Assembly (NCBI GenBank): GCA_036482635.1
Contig: JAZFWH010000281.1
Location: 1-48,216 of the forward strand
DNA from: Myxococcota bacterium
Lineage (GTDB): Bacteria > Myxococcota_A > UBA9160 > SMWR01
Direction: 5' to 3'
DNA: 48,216 nt
In this document: one piece after another, positions 41,875 through 48,141 of the stretch
Layout of the letters: every line of letters begins with the position of its first letter
Numbering within the stretch: position 1 is the stretch's first letter
Notes under the pieces: model-generated
The model's database searches: none
What the model saw: only the letters and a program-made list of their open reading frames with translations
What the model was told of the DNA's origin: nothing
Program-made: the position numbers and the translations under genes

Positions 41875-42884
41875 GGCCCGAGACTGCCGTCTCTGAGCAT
41901 CTGGCCGATCTCCTCGAAGGAGCGGCCCTCTTCGAGGATCTGCTGCTCGATCGCGCGCGTCAGGCGATCCACCTCTTGCGCGTGCTCGCGCGGATCGACC
42001 CGCTGCTCGCGCATGTGGCTCTCGATCGCCGCGCGGATCTCGCGGCGCAGCTCTTCGCGCACCTCCTCGGGCACGTCCTCGCCGGCTTGGATCCTGCGCG
42101 CCACCTCCTCTTGCAGCCCCGTCTCGCCGCGCAGCATGGCCTTTCCGAAGTCGCCGAACCACATCTCGAACAGGCGCTCCGACTGGGTCTTGCCGCTGCC
42201 CTTGACGTTCTCGACCGGGCCGGCGCGCAGCAGGCGGAAGGTCCCGTGGCGCGTGCTGTCGCGCTCGAAGCTCCCGCGCAGCACGCCGTCGGCCTCGATC
42301 TGCGCGGTCGCGTACTGCGTGACGCCTTCCAGCGACTCGCTGAGCGCGGAGCCCAGAATGTCCTCCCGCCTGAACACGGGCAGCGCGGACAGGCCCTCGA
42401 TGCTCCAGTTCTCGACGTAGGTGATCACCGAGGCCGAGGCGGCCGCAGGTCGCGACGCCGAGCTCCAGCCGTCCCCGGACTTGCGCAGGGTCTTCGACTT
42501 GCTGCCGCGGGGGTTCACCTCGAGCCCCTGCTGGATCTGCGCGAGCTGGCGCCCGTTGGGCTCCCAGGAGTGGGGGACGCGGCTGGCGGCGCTGGTGCCC
42601 AGGCGCTCGAAGCGGCCCGAGGAATCCCCGAACACCACGATCGGGTACTCCGTCCAGCGCAGTCGGCTCCCCTTGCGCTCGAAGACCCAGACCTTGTCGT
42701 CCCAGCGCTCCTGCTGCGGGTCGTGGGCGTTGTCGTCGCGGTAGTGGACCAGGACGTGCCAGGTGCCGACCAGGTCCGTCGCCGAAGCCGTCGCCGCGGA
42801 CGACGCGAGCGCCAGCCAGGCCAGCCAGGCACCGAGCCGAAGCGCCCTCAGATCGAGCGCGCGGTGGCGGGAAAGTCTCGCCAT
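41871..42884 (-). CDS. Hypothetical exported protein
   Basis: Signal-peptide-like RALRLGAWLAWLALASSAATASA followed by DLVGTWHVLVHY. Trp-rich beta-type core and acidic helical C-terminus. This is the C-terminal part of the track's 923-aa ORF. Confidence 0.72.
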   Translation of the reverse strand: MARLSRHRALDLRALRLGAWLAWLALASSAATASATDLVGTWHVLVHYRDDNAHDPQQERWDDKVWVFERKGSRLRWTEYPIVVFGDSSGRFERLGTSAASRVPHSWEPNGRQLAQIQQGLEVNPRGSKSKTLRKSGDGWSSASRPAAASASVITYVENWSIEGLSALPVFRREDILGSALSESLEGVTQYATAQIEADGVLRGSFERDSTRHGTFRLLRAGPVENVKGSGKTQSERLFEMWFGDFGKAMLRGETGLQEEVARRIQAGEDVPEEVREELRREIRAAIESHMREQRVDPREHAQEVDRLTRAIEQQILEEGRSFEEIGQMLRDGSLGP

Positions 42885-44383
42885 ACGGGAATTCCGCAGA
42901 AGTGGGACCCCTCGGTGCAGCGGGGTCGGGCCAGGCCGGTCCTCACGAAGCACGGCGGGCCCACGTGGCGCACGAGCTGGGGATGGACGGCCCGCACCTG
43001 CTCGAGCTCGTCCATGGACGCCTGCCAGATCTCGCGCTGGGCGTTCAGGCAGGTTCGCATGACCCACTTGTGGTGCAGGTCGAGGAGCGTGCCCGACTCC
43101 TCGAAGCGCACGGCCAGGGCGTTCGGCAGCACGTAGAGCGCCAGCTCCGGCTCGACACCGCTCTGGAGCAGGCGGGCGCGCGCATCCCAGGCCGCCTCGA
43201 CCGCCTCCGTGAACAGCGCGTGACACTCCGGGTCCTCCCGGATCAACTCGGGCTCCACGACGTCGACGTAGGCCGGCGTCGTGCGGGTGAGCAGTGGCCG
43301 CGAGCCCGGCACCGTGCGGTGGCGCTGGTCCTGCGAATCCGCGGTGTGCGAGAGCTTCTTGCGGAAGGTGTAGTGCGCGTGGGCGAGCGCGCGCATCAGC
43401 GGCGCGTGTGCCGAAACGTTGAGGGCGCCCAGCAGATAGCGGTTCTTGGCCGGGTCGAGGGCCAGTTCGAGCGCCGCCTCTCCGTCCAGGTCCGGCCGGC
43501 CCAGCACGTGCCGGATCGCGTCGGCGACCACCTCCGGGGCGCGCGCGCCGTAGTCCACCAGCCGGGAGCTGCGTCCCCCGAGCGATTTGTCGAAGGCCTC
43601 GGCGGCCTCCCCGTCGCCCACGCCCGGCGCCGCCAGCTCGCGCTCGACGACTTCGTCCGCCTCGAGCGGCGCCTCTCCCACCTCGCGGAAGAAGGCCGGA
43701 TCCACCCGCTCGACGGCCGCCAGCATGCGGCCCACGACGTCCACGGCTTCGCTCGCCGCGTCGCTGGCTCGCGCCATGCGGCGCAGCCGGTGCAGCACGA
43801 TTCCGGAGATCGTGTAGACCATGGCGGTGTGGCAGGCGATCGGGATCACGTAGCGAGCCGTCTCGATCGCCTTCTTCTCCGCTTCGCGCGCCACGTTCTT
43901 GCCGAAGGCGGTCGACTTCCTGTCCGGGAGCCGCCACAGCTCGGAGAGAATCCCCAGGGTCAGCGGCGTGAGGCGCGCCGTCAGCTCCCGGTACGCGCGC
44001 CAGGCGCCCTCGACGGCCGACTCGTAGACCTGGCGGTCCCGGCCCTGCAGCGCCGGGGGCACGTGGGCCGCGACCCGGTCGAGGCGCACGTAGCGCTGGC
44101 TCTGCTGCTCGGTGTTGTAGTAGGGGAACGCGTGCAGGAACGACCACACGAGCTGGCGCGAGATTCCGGAAAGCGCGAACTCGAAGGTGGCGTGCTGGTA
44201 GACCGTGTGGTGCCCGGCCTCGAACGTCAGGGGTCCGATGCGCCGGCGCTGGCCCTCGGTGACTTCGTCGGGCGCGATCACGCGGGGCGAGTAGCAGGTG
44301 CGCGCCGCCGAGATGGCGCCGTCGTAAGGGCGGTCGAACCAATTGCGCAGGCGGACGTCGGGTCCGCCGTCGATCACGGCCAC
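42848..44383 (-). CDS. thyX: FAD-dependent thymidylate synthase, tandem two-domain form
   Basis: Domain 1: AARTCYS, GHHTVYQHATFEF, SR, EQQSQRYV, ARYVIP. Domain 2: HAHYTF, SHTADSQDQRHR, YVLPNA, RTCLNAQREI, GPPC. Confidence 0.85.
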   Translation of the reverse strand: MAVIDGGPDVRLRNWFDRPYDGAISAARTCYSPRVIAPDEVTEGQRRRIGPLTFEAGHHTVYQHATFEFALSGISRQLVWSFLHAFPYYNTEQQSQRYVRLDRVAAHVPPALQGRDRQVYESAVEGAWRAYRELTARLTPLTLGILSELWRLPDRKSTAFGKNVAREAEKKAIETARYVIPIACHTAMVYTISGIVLHRLRRMARASDAASEAVDVVGRMLAAVERVDPAFFREVGEAPLEADEVVERELAAPGVGDGEAAEAFDKSLGGRSSRLVDYGARAPEVVADAIRHVLGRPDLDGEAALELALDPAKNRYLLGALNVSAHAPLMRALAHAHYTFRKKLSHTADSQDQRHRTVPGSRPLLTRTTPAYVDVVEPELIREDPECHALFTEAVEAAWDARARLLQSGVEPELALYVLPNALAVRFEESGTLLDLHHKWVMRTCLNAQREIWQASMDELEQVRAVHPQLVRHVGPPCFVRTGLARPRCTEGSHFCGIPVWRDFPATARSI

Positions 44384-44647
44384 GTGGGCTCCCCGAGGAA
44401 CGTCTGGCGAGGACGCCGGCCCCCCCGTCCCCGAGCTCCAGCTCCGAGGAGCTTAGATGATCGATTCCCCCACCGCCGAAGCGACCGCGGCGGGCCGGCG
44501 TGTGAAAACATTTTCCCATTATGAGCGAAGTGCTGGGACGCGTCGCCCCTCTCCACCCGCCGGGCCAGCCGCCCTGGGGCGGCGGATCCCGCCGAATTCC
44601 CGCAGCTTGCCGCCGATGCTGCGGACCGGTTTCCGGGCCCACGCGTT

Positions 44648-44662
44648 TGGCACACGGTTTGC
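44648..44662 (+). promoter_or_regulatory. sigma54 (-24/-12) promoter
   Basis: TGGCAC-ACGGT-TTGC, an exact TGGCAC-N5-TTGC match, about 55 nt before ATG 44717. A sigma54 activator is encoded two genes downstream. Confidence 0.85.
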
Positions 44663-44716
44663 CGCAGGCACTGAGTGGGTCCGTCTAGGCGAGCGCCGGC
44701 GGGCCGAACGAACCCT

Positions 44717-46696
44717 ATGCCCATACTCTGGATCGTACATCGCGACCCGCGCCGCCGCGCCGCCATCGCGCGCCTGGCGGCAGCTCCCGAGGACACGGTT
44801 CTCGGCGCTCCCGGCGATCCGCTCTTCGACGCGGCGCCCACGCCCGAGGTCGTCCTGCTCGGACCCGCGGGCGACTTCGAGGCGGAGCTCCAGTTCGCCC
44901 ATCGCGCCGCGCCGCGCGCGGGCCGCGCTGCCTGGATCCTGCTGCCCGAGCGCGGGCACCTCGAGGAGGTCGCGCGCCTGTTCGACACGCTCGACGCCGA
45001 CGTCCTGGCCTTCCCCCCGGACCCGGACGTGCTGCGCTCGCGCATTCTCGCCGCGCCGGAGCGCGCGCACCCGCTGCCGCTCTCCCAACGCCCCGCCCGA
45101 GAGGCGCTCAGCGGCCGCTTCGGGCGCTGGTTCGCCGACCTCGAGCTTCCCCAGCTGATGCGCGCGCTCGACCCCGGCCTCGCGGACGTCCCCGTGCTGA
45201 TCCGCGGCGAGCGGGGCACGGGCCGCGGGTTGCTGGCCCACTACCTCCACGCCTTCGGCGGCACCTCGGACGGCGTCCTGATCCATGTCGCCTGCACGCC
45301 CCGCGCCTCGGCCGAGGAGATCCGCGAGGCGCTGCGCGCCGGCGCGCGAACGGAGCGGGCGCACAGCGCCTGCGCAGTCTGGCTCGAGGATGCGGACAGC
45401 CTGGCGGCGCCGGTCCAGCGCCAGCTGCTGCGCTGGATCGAGTTGGCGGCGCCGGAGGGCGCTCTGCCCAGCTATCGCGTGCGCTGGATCGCCACGGCGG
45501 CGGACGAGCCGGGCGGGCCGCTCGACCCGGACCTGCAGCAGGCGCTCTCGGGCATCGCGATCCGCATCCCCCCGCTGCGCGACAGGACGCCGCTGGTCGC
45601 GACGTTCGCCAACGAGACGACGCGAGCCTGGTGCGCAGCCCGAGGGGAGCGGCCGCGTCGCTTCGGCGAGGACGCGATCGCGGTGCTCGAGGAGTATCCG
45701 TGGCCCGGCAACCTGCGCGAGTTCGAGGCCGTGGTGGTCCAGACGCTCCGCGCGGGTTCGGCAGACCCGGTGCGCGCCGCAGACCTCGAGTACGACGGCC
45801 GGGCCTTCGCGCCCCTGAACGCGCTCGAAGTGGGCGCGCTGATCGCCGAGGCGGAGGAAGGCGGCGCGCCGGCCGCCGGCCACCCGCCCCCCGCACCCCC
45901 GCTGTTGGACGCCGAGGCGATGGCCGCCGAGCTCGCTCCCGAGCTGCTGGACCCGGAGGCGATGGAGGCCGCGCTGCTGGAGGAGCCGCCGGGCGCCGAG
46001 CGGTTCGAGCCGACGCCCGCCGCGGAGCCGAGCGTCGGCGACGCCGCGCTGAAGCGCCTGCTGGCCGCGATCGATCACGAGCTGCGCAACCCGCTCTCGA
46101 CGATCCGCACCTTCGCCGAGCTGCTACCCGAGCGCTACCAGGACGCCGAGTTCCGCGGGCGCTTCTCCGAGCTCGTGCTCCAGGCGGTGCAGCGCATCAC
46201 GGGTGTGGTGGAGCGGCTCTCGCAGCTCGCCTCCCTGAGCGAGCCCTCGCGCGAAGCGGTCGACGTGGCGGGCCTGCTCGAGCAGCTCCTCGACGAGCGG
46301 CGCGAGCTCATCCACCGCCGGCGCCTGCTGGTCCTCAAAGAGCTCGACGCGAGCCAGCCCTACGCGCGCGGCGACGCCGAGCAGCTGCGGCTGGCCTTCG
46401 AGGCGCTGCTGCACAAGTGCCTGGACCTGGTGCCCGAGCGCGGCGACGTCTACCTCGCCTCGAAGCACCACCCCAGCGGGCTGCGCGGCGAGCCCTCCGT
46501 CCGGGTCCTGGTGCGCTTCCACGGACCCGCGGCCGAGGGCGCCGGCCCGCGCGTGCCCGGCCTGTCCCCCGCCGATCACGCCGTCGAGTTCGCCGTGGCC
46601 GAGACGATCGTGCGCAGCCAGGGCGGCGTATTCGCCATCGATGCCAGCGAGGGCAACGAGACCGTGATCGTCCTCGACCTCCCCGCCCCCGGCTGA
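44717..46696 (+). CDS. Multidomain protein: pseudo-receiver, degenerate sigma54-activator AAA+, HisKA(DHp), degenerate HATPase
   Basis: VPVLIRGERGTGR, IPPLRDR, YPWPGNLRE (AAA+). IDHELRNPLSTI (H-box). GDAEQLRLAF...IVRSQGG...TVIVLDLP (CA-fold remnants). Confidence 0.82.
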   Translation: MPILWIVHRDPRRRAAIARLAAAPEDTVLGAPGDPLFDAAPTPEVVLLGPAGDFEAELQFAHRAAPRAGRAAWILLPERGHLEEVARLFDTLDADVLAFPPDPDVLRSRILAAPERAHPLPLSQRPAREALSGRFGRWFADLELPQLMRALDPGLADVPVLIRGERGTGRGLLAHYLHAFGGTSDGVLIHVACTPRASAEEIREALRAGARTERAHSACAVWLEDADSLAAPVQRQLLRWIELAAPEGALPSYRVRWIATAADEPGGPLDPDLQQALSGIAIRIPPLRDRTPLVATFANETTRAWCAARGERPRRFGEDAIAVLEEYPWPGNLREFEAVVVQTLRAGSADPVRAADLEYDGRAFAPLNALEVGALIAEAEEGGAPAAGHPPPAPPLLDAEAMAAELAPELLDPEAMEAALLEEPPGAERFEPTPAAEPSVGDAALKRLLAAIDHELRNPLSTIRTFAELLPERYQDAEFRGRFSELVLQAVQRITGVVERLSQLASLSEPSREAVDVAGLLEQLLDERRELIHRRRLLVLKELDASQPYARGDAEQLRLAFEALLHKCLDLVPERGDVYLASKHHPSGLRGEPSVRVLVRFHGPAAEGAGPRVPGLSPADHAVEFAVAETIVRSQGGVFAIDASEGNETVIVLDLPAPG

Positions 46697-46761
46697 TCGC
46701 CGCTCCATCCAGAGCACGAGCGCCGCGGTCGAAGCGCGCGGTTTGGTAAGTTTCCCGTGGG

Positions 46762-48141
46762 ATGATGGCTCGCGTGCTGGTGGTCGACGACGAGCCCGGG
46801 GTGAGGGAATCCCTCCGGATGCTCCTCAAGGGCGACTGCCAGGTCGTCACGGCGGAGAACGTGGAGCAGGCGCGGGCCGCCATCGCCGAGACCCCGCCCG
46901 ACCTGGTGCTGCTGGACATGGTCATGCCCGGCGGCAGCGGCCTCGACCTGCTCGCCGAGCTGTCGGAATGCCCCGATCCCCCGCCCGTGGTGGTGCTCAC
47001 TGCGACCCGCACGGTCTCGTCGGCGGTCGAGGCCATGAAGCGCGGCGCCGCCGACTACGTGACCAAGCCCTTCGAAGTCGACGCGCTGCGCATCAAGGTC
47101 CGCCAGCTCCTGGAGCGGCGCGAGCTCGAGCGCGAAGTGGAGCGACTGCGTGCGAAGGTGGAGGAGCGGGATTGCCTGTGCGGCCTGGTGGGGCGAAGCG
47201 AACGCATGCAGGAGATTTTCCGAACCATCCGCAGGGTCGCGCAATCCCGGGCGACCGTGCTGGTGCTCGGTGAGAGCGGGACGGGCAAGGAGCTGGTCGC
47301 CCGGGCCATCCACGACCTCGGGCCGCGCTGCGAGGGACCGTTTGTCGCCGTCAACTGCGCCGCGATTCCGGACAGCCTGATCGAGAGCGAGCTGTTCGGC
47401 CACGAACGAGGAGCGTTCACCGACGCGGTGGAGCGCCGCATCGGCAAGTTCGAAACGGCTTCGGGCGGTACGCTCTTCCTCGACGAGATCGGTGACCTGG
47501 GCGGGAACGTCCAGGCGAAGTTCCTGCGCGCGCTCCAGGAGCGCTGCATCGAACGGCTGGGCGGCTCGGGTCCCATCGACGTCGACGTGCGGGTGGTTGC
47601 GGCAACCCACCGCGACCTCGAGAGGGAGGTCGCCGCCGGTCGCTTCCGCTCGGACCTGTACTACCGCATCCACGTCGTGCCCCTGGTGCTCCCACCGCTG
47701 TGCGAGCGGCGGGACGACATCCGCCCCCTGGCGCAGGTGTTCCTGGAGCGGATGCGCGCCGAGGCCGGCCGCGGTCCGAAGCGCATCGCGCGCGACGCGC
47801 TGGCGGCTCTGGAGCGCTACCCCTGGCCCGGAAACGTCCGCGAGCTCGAGAACGCCATCGAGCATGCGGTCGCACTCTCCGAGCGGGAGGTGTTGGAGGT
47901 GGCCGACCTGCCCCCGGCCGTGGTGCGCTCCACACGCACGGAGGCGCTGCGCGACGGCGTGCGGGCGGGGCGCCTGGGCCTCGAGCAGGCCGTGGCGGAC
48001 TTCGCCCAGGAGATCCTGCTGGAAACCCTCGAACAGCTGGGTTGGAACCAGACGCGCGCCGCCGAGCAGCTCGGCATCACGCGGCGCTCCCTCAAGCTCA
48101 TGCTGGACCGCTACGGACTGAAGCCCCCCGAGCGAGGCTGA
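46762..48141 (+). CDS. sigma54-dependent response regulator, NtrC/AtoC family (REC-AAA+-Fis HTH)
   Basis: VLVVDDE, LLDMVMP, TKPF. GESGTGKE, ESELFGHERGAFTDA, LFLDEIGD, FRSDLYYR, WPGNVREL. NQTRAAEQLGITR. Confidence 0.96.
   Translation: MMARVLVVDDEPGVRESLRMLLKGDCQVVTAENVEQARAAIAETPPDLVLLDMVMPGGSGLDLLAELSECPDPPPVVVLTATRTVSSAVEAMKRGAADYVTKPFEVDALRIKVRQLLERRELEREVERLRAKVEERDCLCGLVGRSERMQEIFRTIRRVAQSRATVLVLGESGTGKELVARAIHDLGPRCEGPFVAVNCAAIPDSLIESELFGHERGAFTDAVERRIGKFETASGGTLFLDEIGDLGGNVQAKFLRALQERCIERLGGSGPIDVDVRVVAATHRDLEREVAAGRFRSDLYYRIHVVPLVLPPLCERRDDIRPLAQVFLERMRAEAGRGPKRIARDALAALERYPWPGNVRELENAIEHAVALSEREVLEVADLPPAVVRSTRTEALRDGVRAGRLGLEQAVADFAQEILLETLEQLGWNQTRAAEQLGITRRSLKLMLDRYGLKPPERG

Follow-up and report, generated by a model that had tools for sequence, protein, structure and literature searches.

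The DNA analysed here (the window) is a 48,216-nt stretch that forms one entire contig (JAZFWH010000281.1) of G000, a 3.63-Mb metagenome-assembled genome (MAG) of a Myxococcota bacterium (407 contigs, 92% complete). It carries the gene of a 659-residue protein, here called P0001, in which a copy of a sigma54 activator is fused to the core of a sensor kinase; the sites that use ATP have all been lost and the phospho-histidine site is kept. A sigma54 promoter lies before the gene and an intact NtrC-like activator is encoded after it. The features of the locus are:

44501..44518, no strand: AT-rich inverted repeat TGTGAAAACATTTTCCCA, a candidate enhancer (upstream activating sequence), about 140 nt upstream of the -24 element
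44648..44662, + strand: sigma54 promoter with -24/-12 elements TGGCACacggtTTGC, a perfect match, 55 nt before the ATG of P0001
44717..46696, + strand: gene of P0001 (pseudo-receiver, pseudo-AAA+, DHp and pseudo-CA), 659 aa
44717..45064, + strand: receiver-fold domain, residues 1-116, a (beta-alpha)5 fold to which the receivers of NtrC1 and NtrX align
45137..45796, + strand: degenerate sigma54-type AAA+ core and lid, residues 141-360, with Walker A GERGTGR at 45206-45226
45818..46030, + strand: disordered linker, residues 368-438, acidic and proline-rich, of varying length, pLDDT 32-38
46034..46231, + strand: DHp (HisKA) hairpin, residues 440-505, with the H-box H454-E455-L-R-N458-P-L and the His codon at 46076-46078
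46253..46693, + strand: CA-like alpha/beta domain, residues 513-659, without ATP-binding residues (K567, R600, HAVEFA)
46762..48141, + strand: intact NtrC-like activator (REC, AAA+ with GAFTDA, HTH_8), 65 nt after the P0001 gene

The P0001 gene is an open reading frame (ORF) of 1,980 nt whose translation contains no stops, and its GC content at third codon positions (0.93) is the same as that of the adjacent genes. A GTG at 44675 would add 14 residues at the amino terminus, but the relatives begin at the equivalent of the ATG ('M..LWIVHRD').

Domain anatomy of P0001

The Pfam search of P0001 returned HisKA at residues 445-508 (E 2.7e-12) and AAA_lid_14 at 296-359 (E 8.4e-08), along with weak or partial matches to Sigma54_activ_2 and Sigma54_activat (27 and 24.7 bits); with the full Sigma54_activat profile, the match covers profile positions 21-60 of 168 only. 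No Response_reg, HATPase_c or HTH domain (including HTH_8) was found in this search, and the place after the lid is occupied by HisKA. An AlphaFold2 model based on an alignment of 28 relatives (mean pLDDT 81) divides the chain into a (beta-alpha)5 fold (residues 1-116), an AAA+ core plus lid (140-346), a disordered segment (368-440), a helical hairpin (440-505) and an alpha/beta domain (513-656). DSSP assigns five strand-helix units to residues 4-116 of the model, at a pLDDT of 85-96, as in a receiver fold. Foldseek matches to the first ~395 residues are REC-AAA+ structures (NtrX, NtrC1 (1ny5), NtrC4, LuxO, VpsR and FleQ). For residues ~40-360 the strongest hits by sequence and structure are NtrX, VpsR and FleQ, with VpsR 7v2b at E 2e-25 and NtrX 5m7p at a Foldseek E of 1e-16. 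The last ~225 residues match kinase cores instead, namely those of ZraS (9jfj, TM by target 0.70), HK853, and RetS and DivL (6dk7 and 7n0e, TM by target 0.63-0.70; 4q20, 0.64).

The folds are retained and the catalytic motifs within them are degenerate. In the receiver, H8-R9 stand at the position of the acidic pair, and a profile alignment to NtrC1 places G49 on the phospho-Asp and P100 (of P100-P101) on the conserved Lys(-Pro); the three sites read IVHRD, VVLLG and FPPD. Alignment to the adjoining activator gives, for the AAA+ domain, a Walker A of GERGTGR versus GESGTGK (Lys to Arg), an 11-residue deletion in the L1 loop opposite the neighbour's GAFTDA, a Walker B of WLED (WLEDAD) versus FLDE, and PLDPDLQQAL versus FRSDLYYR in the arginine-finger region, with both arginine fingers lost; the Walker B and arginine-finger changes are shared by the relatives. 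PPLRDR and WPGNLRE are retained, and PPLR(D/E)R and WPGNLRE are conserved in the relatives. In a colinear alignment of the CA-like domain to ZraS (9jfj), K567 falls on the Asn of the N box, R600 on the Asp of the G1 box and HAVEFA on GTGLGL of the G2 box. The DHp, by contrast with these losses, keeps a complete H-E-x-x-N H-box (HELRNPL). P0001 has the AAA+ fold, lid and sensor II and the receiver fold of sigma54 activators, and it lacks their catalytic and HTH features. A preliminary description of the window, made from the DNA alone, had claimed the same: a receiver without acidic pocket, phospho-Asp and Lys; an AAA+ domain with a Lys to Arg change in Walker A, no GAFTGA, an altered Walker B and no arginine finger that keeps PPLRDR and WPGNLRE; and, with no HTH, a DHp with HELRNP and a CA-like domain without N, G1 and G2 boxes. 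All of these readings agree with the alignments and the Pfam results.

Activators without a sigma54-contact loop are known, for NtrX and VpsR lack it, and P0001 resembles them in this respect. NtrX, VpsR and FleQ, however, still have the Walker A Lys, an amino-terminal domain that can be phosphorylated or binds a ligand, and an HTH; all three are missing from P0001, where a kinase core takes the place of the HTH. No account of a REC/AAA+/HisKA fusion or of the P0001 family came up in a literature search covering open-access papers and bioRxiv, in line with the earlier remark that such a regulator was not recognised as described.

The densest run of invariant residues in P0001 is a helix that joins the receiver fold to the AAA+ core (residues 122-141; 45080-45139), in which L122, S123, R125, R128, R134, W138, F139 and D141 are invariant across 28 sequences. 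This helix may bind a ligand or form the interface of a dimer.

Conservation and distribution of the family

A word-indexed protein search returned 517 proteins at E <= 0.001 among 8,000 candidates scored, and an exhaustive search of representatives returned 197 clusters at E <= 1e-30. Among the 120 matches listed from the former, lengths range from 628 to 761 aa and best-segment identities from 50 to 61%; judged by the best BLASTP segment, the alignment spans at least 97% of P0001 in 111 cases and only 33-59% in nine. Residue counts were taken from an alignment of 221 relatives of 580-900 aa out of 267 (46 shorter fragments being left out), in which 90% and 50% clusters are mixed and rows are not independent. 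The last residue of Walker A is Arg in 206 of the 221 and Lys in ten; G49 is found in 199 (with Asp in two) and H8 in 198; and, in the CA-like domain, R596 and R600 are conserved in 215 and 216, respectively. Within the DHp, H454 is kept in 193, E455 in 196 and N458 in 188. The H-box is complete (H, E/D and N/T) in 177 relatives, has H and N/T without the acidic residue in 11 and has H and the acid without N/T in five; a Glu follows the His in 182 of the 193 His-bearing members. Neither HATPase_c nor Response_reg was detected by Pfam in 12 of the most distant relatives.

The ratio of nonsynonymous to synonymous substitution (dN/dS, Nei-Gojobori) is 0.12-0.25 for each of the folded domains (pseudo-REC, AAA+, DHp and CA-like) and 0.39-0.70 for the linker in three of four congeneric genome pairs, and 0.14-0.45 in the fourth, more diverged pair. 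Column conservation in the linker is likewise 0.23, versus 0.57-0.62 in the other parts of the protein, and its length differs widely across the family; in one relative, P0101, it is longer by about 100 residues of AEPELVAEAELV-type repeats (alignment columns 470-600). With the same motif losses shared across 221 full-length relatives, and with low dN/dS values, the degeneracy is not recent decay. It is ancient and under purifying selection, and P0001 combines four domains without catalytic residues in one chain, all of them still selected.

Almost all genomes in the order of G000 carry the family, in a single copy. Matches to P0001 occur in 38 of 41 genomes of its family and order (E <= 5.8e-63), and one genome (G035) has a weaker ortholog in two pieces with the same gene order. 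Sampling of the phylum (301 genomes) gave a match in 48 (E <= 1e-40), all within one class; the counts by family are 8/8 (f1), 6/6 (f7), 19/19 (f10), 3/9 (f12) and 7/10 (f13), and families outside the class gave no match in this sample. The named public contigs with true relatives (L013-L015) are labelled as Myxococcota or Deltaproteobacteria MAGs, and the two from Myxococcota-labelled MAGs (L013 and L014) encode the fusion in a single ORF. In the ESM Atlas there is a second cluster with the P0001 architecture, whose commonest label is Candidatus Binatota. Apparent matches to the two halves in Acidobacteriota, Thermodesulfobacteriota, Firmicutes and others were rejected: none of the 15 loci inspected encodes a single-ORF fusion, and most contain two adjacent full-length ORFs, one of kinase size and one of activator size. 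The contig scan behind these matches is dominated by the generic H-box pattern and lists only some of its matches, which makes it unusable for distribution.

The sigma54 promoter and the regulator genes

The -24/-12 elements upstream of P0001 are the only exact match to the sigma54 pattern in the whole window, and G000 carries an rpoN gene for sigma54. An exact match is also found upstream of the P0001 ortholog in 11 of 12 related loci (L001-L012) and in L013; in L015 one is present, but downstream of its cut gene piece. With a relaxed pattern, 17 of 20 loci have a match 57-184 nt upstream of the ortholog, as do four of six further loci from the same order (21/26 in all). The preliminary description had called the protein sigma54-induced, and the promoter and its recurrence support this. 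The inverted repeat farther upstream has counterparts as well: a similar element (of the TGGGAAA-N2-4-TTTCCCA type) lies 120-170 nt upstream of the -24 element in 17 of 17 promoter-anchored related loci, ten of which contain the exact 8-mer TGGGAAAA. A regular expression for the palindrome that allows up to three substitutions matched in three of the six further same-order loci and in none of seven loci of the sister family described below. The palindrome looks like an activator binding site in both its placement and its form, and it may be bound by the activator of the same locus. When the regions upstream of 58 sigma54-like sites in G000 were searched for it, a few loose matches were found (C184, C298, C329, C341, C356 and C22), on short contigs where the downstream genes are unclear.

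Two further observations concern the region upstream of the promoter. A second conserved element, TACTCTCGCAGA(G/C) and variants, occurs farther upstream toward the divergent gene in many relatives (L002, L003, L006-L008, L010, L012, L014, L092, L093 and L099) and is not recognised in the copy in the window. The product of the divergent gene itself (42848-44383, - strand) is 510 aa long, roughly double a usual ThyX, and contains two Thy1 (ThyX) stretches; the gene is found at the same position in the relative L099.

The gene downstream of P0001, probably in the same operon, encodes a complete activator, as had been claimed: Pfam identifies REC, Sigma54_activat (236.6 bits), the lid and HTH_8. 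All of the 14 activator orthologs inspected keep the acidic pair (DD), the phospho-Asp, GESG[TS]GK, GAFT[DG]A and FRxDL[YF][YF]R, and they are 58-73% identical to each other, versus about 50-55% among P0001 orthologs. In the L1 loop of these orthologs (the L002-L099 set), GAFTDA is found in 11 and the canonical GAFTGA in three. An NtrC-like gene lies directly downstream of the P0001 ortholog in 25 of 28 distinct genomes of the order; in two of the remaining three the contig or locus ends too early (L008 and L110) and in G020 there is another gene. This gene of G020 (L092:3077-7744, - strand) is a 1,556-aa ORF with Pkinase, Guanylate_cyc and AAA_16 domains, which replaces the NtrC-like gene between the pseudo-kinase and a REC-HD-GYP gene.

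A REC-HD-GYP (HD_5) gene follows the activator in nine of the 15 genomes with enough sequence, and also follows the inserted gene in G020; after it there is often a small PilZ-like protein and then tatC. The alpha1 helix of its receiver, 'VDDE.GPR(E/D)SLR(M/L)IL', is nearly identical to that of the activator, 'VDDE.GV(R/Q)ESLRM' (core 'GPRESLRMIL' versus 'GVRESLRML'). Alpha1 is the main determinant of kinase-regulator pairing (see PMC3892784), and since the two helices are nearly identical, both regulators are predicted to dock on the same DHp.

Docking of the activator was modelled with two copies of P0001 residues 436-659 and receiver residues 1-125, each with an alignment of its own. Three runs gave ipSAE values of 0.64, 0.65 and 0.67, versus 0.16, 0.00 and 0.00 for controls that included no non-cognate receivers; this mark is attained by 116 of 157 solved complexes and by two of 215 mismatched pairs. 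At least 87% of the contacts recur between runs, and the partner's pLDDT is at least 83. P0001 contributes residues 453-469 and 473-490 of the DHp and the former ATP-lid region (603-621), and the receiver contributes alpha1 (11-23), 53-61, 81-90 and 101-107. The interface is canonical, with DHp alpha1 against receiver alpha1 and the beta5-alpha5 loop in the geometry of HK853-RR468.

The sister family f13, seven genomes with proteins 30-33% identical to P0001, provides a contrast. Its loci lie in the same chromosomal block, with tatA/tatC downstream and, in the one locus checked for it (L101), a GNAT gene upstream, and both regulator genes are missing. In six of these seven proteins the His is replaced (by Q, Q, Q, Q, E or D), in all seven the Asn at +4 is lost and in six a P-loop glycine is lost, while the CA-like, lid and pseudo-receiver parts are still recognisable. 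In the order of G000, every ortholog with a readable H-box except that of L108 keeps H-[EAQ]-x-R-N-P-L. The pattern is as expected if His and Asn were retained for chemistry on the co-encoded regulators; the contrast is essentially one evolutionary split and carries no statistical weight.

Two side observations belong here. The exception in L108 (L108:1509-3524, genome G287) has Pro for the H-box His (SLAPEIRNPL) and two congeners keep the His, and it may be a true loss or a sequencing error. Directly after the His-less protein of f13, four of five loci checked have a conserved ORF of about 170 aa, unrelated to the regulator genes (46-55% identity between genomes) for which no Pfam match was found:

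L101:3403-3924: f13 ORF of about 170 aa
L102:3461-3985: f13 ORF of about 170 aa
L103:3452-3979: f13 ORF of about 170 aa
L105:3525-4031: f13 ORF of about 170 aa

A possible role for P0001 and its alternatives

From the anatomy, conservation, promoter and gene order described above we infer the activities of P0001, which probably turns off or redirects the pair of regulators whose genes come next. The reading that we tentatively prefer is that P0001 is a kinase-dead, sigma54-induced, phosphatase-type negative-feedback partner of the neighbouring regulators. The operon would be transcribed from its sigma54 promoter, most likely with the NtrC-like activator of the operon binding the palindrome farther upstream. 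P0001 would dimerise through the DHp and dock the receiver of the activator and, in relatives, may also dock the REC-HD-GYP cyclic di-GMP (c-di-GMP) phosphodiesterase through nearly the same specificity helix. Because the CA-like domain has none of the ATP-binding residues, P0001 is predicted to be unable to load its own His; the retained His-Glu-x-x-Asn would instead take phosphate off the regulators (the Asn at His+4 is the phosphatase residue of HisKA kinases), which would reset the activator in a sigma54-induced negative feedback and might balance phosphate between the two outputs. The frozen receiver/AAA+ half would be a non-hydrolysing image of the partner, serving as a dimeric input or assembly module, and may still bind nucleotide.

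The preliminary description had proposed a dead activator-kinase chimera that may co-oligomerise with its neighbour, dephosphorylate it, or both. This interpretation stands in part: the ancient degeneracy, the promoter, the activator neighbour and the association of H-E-x-x-N with the regulator genes support it. The conservation of the His on which it depended is borne out in 193 of 221 relatives and in the regulator-linked loci, but the His is lost in other relatives and in six of the seven f13 proteins. For the interaction with the activator, the model does place the neighbour's receiver on the DHp. The preliminary description had mentioned neither the second, REC-HD-GYP partner in relatives nor the upstream palindrome nor the His-less relatives.

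Several points weigh against the phosphatase reading. The source of phosphate for a pure phosphatase is its main gap. The fetched loci, annotated only in part, showed no other kinase gene; a six-frame scan of G000 for HisKA H-boxes returned 15 motif matches, some twelve of which are plausible kinases, and none has an alpha1 like NPLSTIRTFAELL. Acetyl phosphate was considered as a source as well, but acetate kinase (PF00871), the one enzyme sought for it, was not found in this 92% complete genome. The REC-HD-GYP gene cannot be seen in G000, where the contig ends 75 nt after the stop codon of the activator, and a tblastn search with an ortholog found only a 37%-identical paralog on C195. The docking result may merely reflect likeness to solved complexes of the HK853-RR468 type. 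The His is absent from about 28 of the 221 relatives, from one ortholog of the same order (that of L108) and from six of the seven f13 proteins, and because such members exist the core function of the family does not need the His. The Glu beside the His is kept in most members, which would suit a phosphotransfer role too; Willett and Kirby are said to have reported in 2012 that this Glu is needed for kinase and transfer chemistry and not for phosphatase activity. Finally, loss of motifs is no proof of lost kinase activity, and Nla6S of Myxococcus is reportedly an active kinase with an atypical CA domain.

A less likely, though serious, competitor is that P0001 is a phosphotransferase hub, like ChpT of Caulobacter or Spo0B of Bacillus, whose DHp His would be charged by the receiver of an unlinked hybrid kinase or by one of the two regulators, with the NtrC-like activator and the REC-HD-GYP protein as recipients of the phosphate and the pseudo-CA domain aiding docking only. 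ChpT and Spo0B have a His-bearing DHp-type hairpin followed by a CA-like domain unable to bind ATP, a layout that P0001 fits at the level of motifs. ChpT feeds two regulators, and the two co-encoded regulators with nearly identical alpha1 helices would likewise permit a branched output; the Glu after the His in nearly all His-bearing members suits transfer; and with no other phosphate source in the operon an outside donor is needed anyway. However, no hybrid kinase was seen linked to the locus in the fetched loci (no co-occurrence search was made), the Asn at His+4 is retained as well as the Glu, and known phosphotransferases have nothing that corresponds to the large pseudo-REC/AAA+ module. 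ChpT and Spo0B have no amino-terminal receiver/AAA+ module, their H-box is not of the HisKA H-E-x-x-N type, and their phosphodonor CckA is known, whereas none has been identified for P0001. Neither a ChpT nor a Spo0B chain is among the fold or sequence matches listed for P0001.

Somewhat more doubtful is the possibility that P0001 is a non-catalytic scaffold or anti-activator, in which the pseudo-REC/AAA+ half would join the REC/AAA+ of its neighbour in mixed dimers or poisoned rings, or the DHp would bind the receiver as in DivL, the His being chemically unused. In the Foldseek comparison the amino-terminal half reproduces the whole structure of an NtrC1/NtrX-type REC-AAA+ unit, the inter-domain helix with its eight invariant residues is conserved, and the His-less members are otherwise conserved. 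The pseudokinases RetS of Pseudomonas and DivL of Caulobacter, which Foldseek also returns for the carboxy-terminal half, are kinase-fold proteins that act by binding a partner and not by autophosphorylation. RetS has a periplasmic sensor and carboxy-terminal receivers and targets another kinase, and DivL has a Tyr in place of the His; unlike P0001, neither has an AAA+ module or a sigma54 operon. Against a scaffold, His, Glu and Asn are kept far better in the regulator-linked subfamily than a plain docking surface needs, and L108 is the only same-order ortholog with a readable H-box that lacks the His.

It is improbable that P0001 is an active atypical kinase, with its His autophosphorylated from ATP that the CA-like domain binds non-canonically or the AAA+ P-loop supplies. 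Beside the regulators no kinase-like gene other than that of P0001 was seen, the glycines of the P-loop (GxxGxG) persist in the regulator-linked subfamily, and Nla6S offers a precedent; but the Asn that binds Mg, the Asp that binds adenine and the glycine lid have become K, R and HAVEFA in the ZraS alignment, with the same state in all 221 relatives, and the AAA+ domain lacks the catalytic Lys and both arginine fingers. The gene order also recalls active kinases: in the Myxococcus operons nla28S-nla28, nla6S-nla6 and mrpA-mrpB, a kinase gene comes first and an NtrC-like activator second behind an autoregulated sigma54 promoter (PMC9765219, PMC3892784), and P0001 and its neighbour have the same layout. 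The Myxococcus kinases, however, have ordinary sensor inputs and are reported active, and none is known to have a pseudo-REC/AAA+ input. NmpS of Myxococcus has a receiver fused to the amino terminus of a HisKA-CA transmitter and pairs with an NtrC-like regulator (PMC11841059), and is similar to P0001 in both respects; its receiver is phosphorylatable, its CA domain is active and it has no AAA+ domain, unlike P0001. A decaying pseudogene or a chance open frame, which the loss of all catalytic motifs might suggest and which the preliminary description had already argued against, is ruled out by the 1,980-nt frame, the 197 representative clusters, the orthologs across the whole class and the low dN/dS of the folded domains.

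A more speculative elaboration, which we consider rather unlikely, is that of a 'substrate-shaped' regulator. The amino-terminal replica of the partner's REC-AAA+ would pair with the activator dimer or insert into its ring, and may read ATP/ADP through the surviving P-loop, and the DHp would remove or re-route phosphate only from an activator in a particular assembly state; through the sibling REC-HD-GYP protein, one pseudo-enzyme would then couple sigma54 transcription to c-di-GMP breakdown. We know of no two-component system with a full mimic of the regulator as the input domain of the kinase.

The pseudo-enzymes DivL, RetS and ChpT each revealed a new wiring principle in bacterial signalling. 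The module described here comes from a class of uncultured bacteria without a characterised regulatory system, as far as the open-access literature shows. In the P0001 family the His is the single retained chemical group and tracks the regulator genes across lineages, which makes the family a natural experiment on a kinase core that has lost the use of ATP. The three-protein module, a pseudo-kinase, a sigma54 activator and a c-di-GMP phosphodiesterase, is well suited to the study of feedback and of the partitioning of phosphate between outputs.

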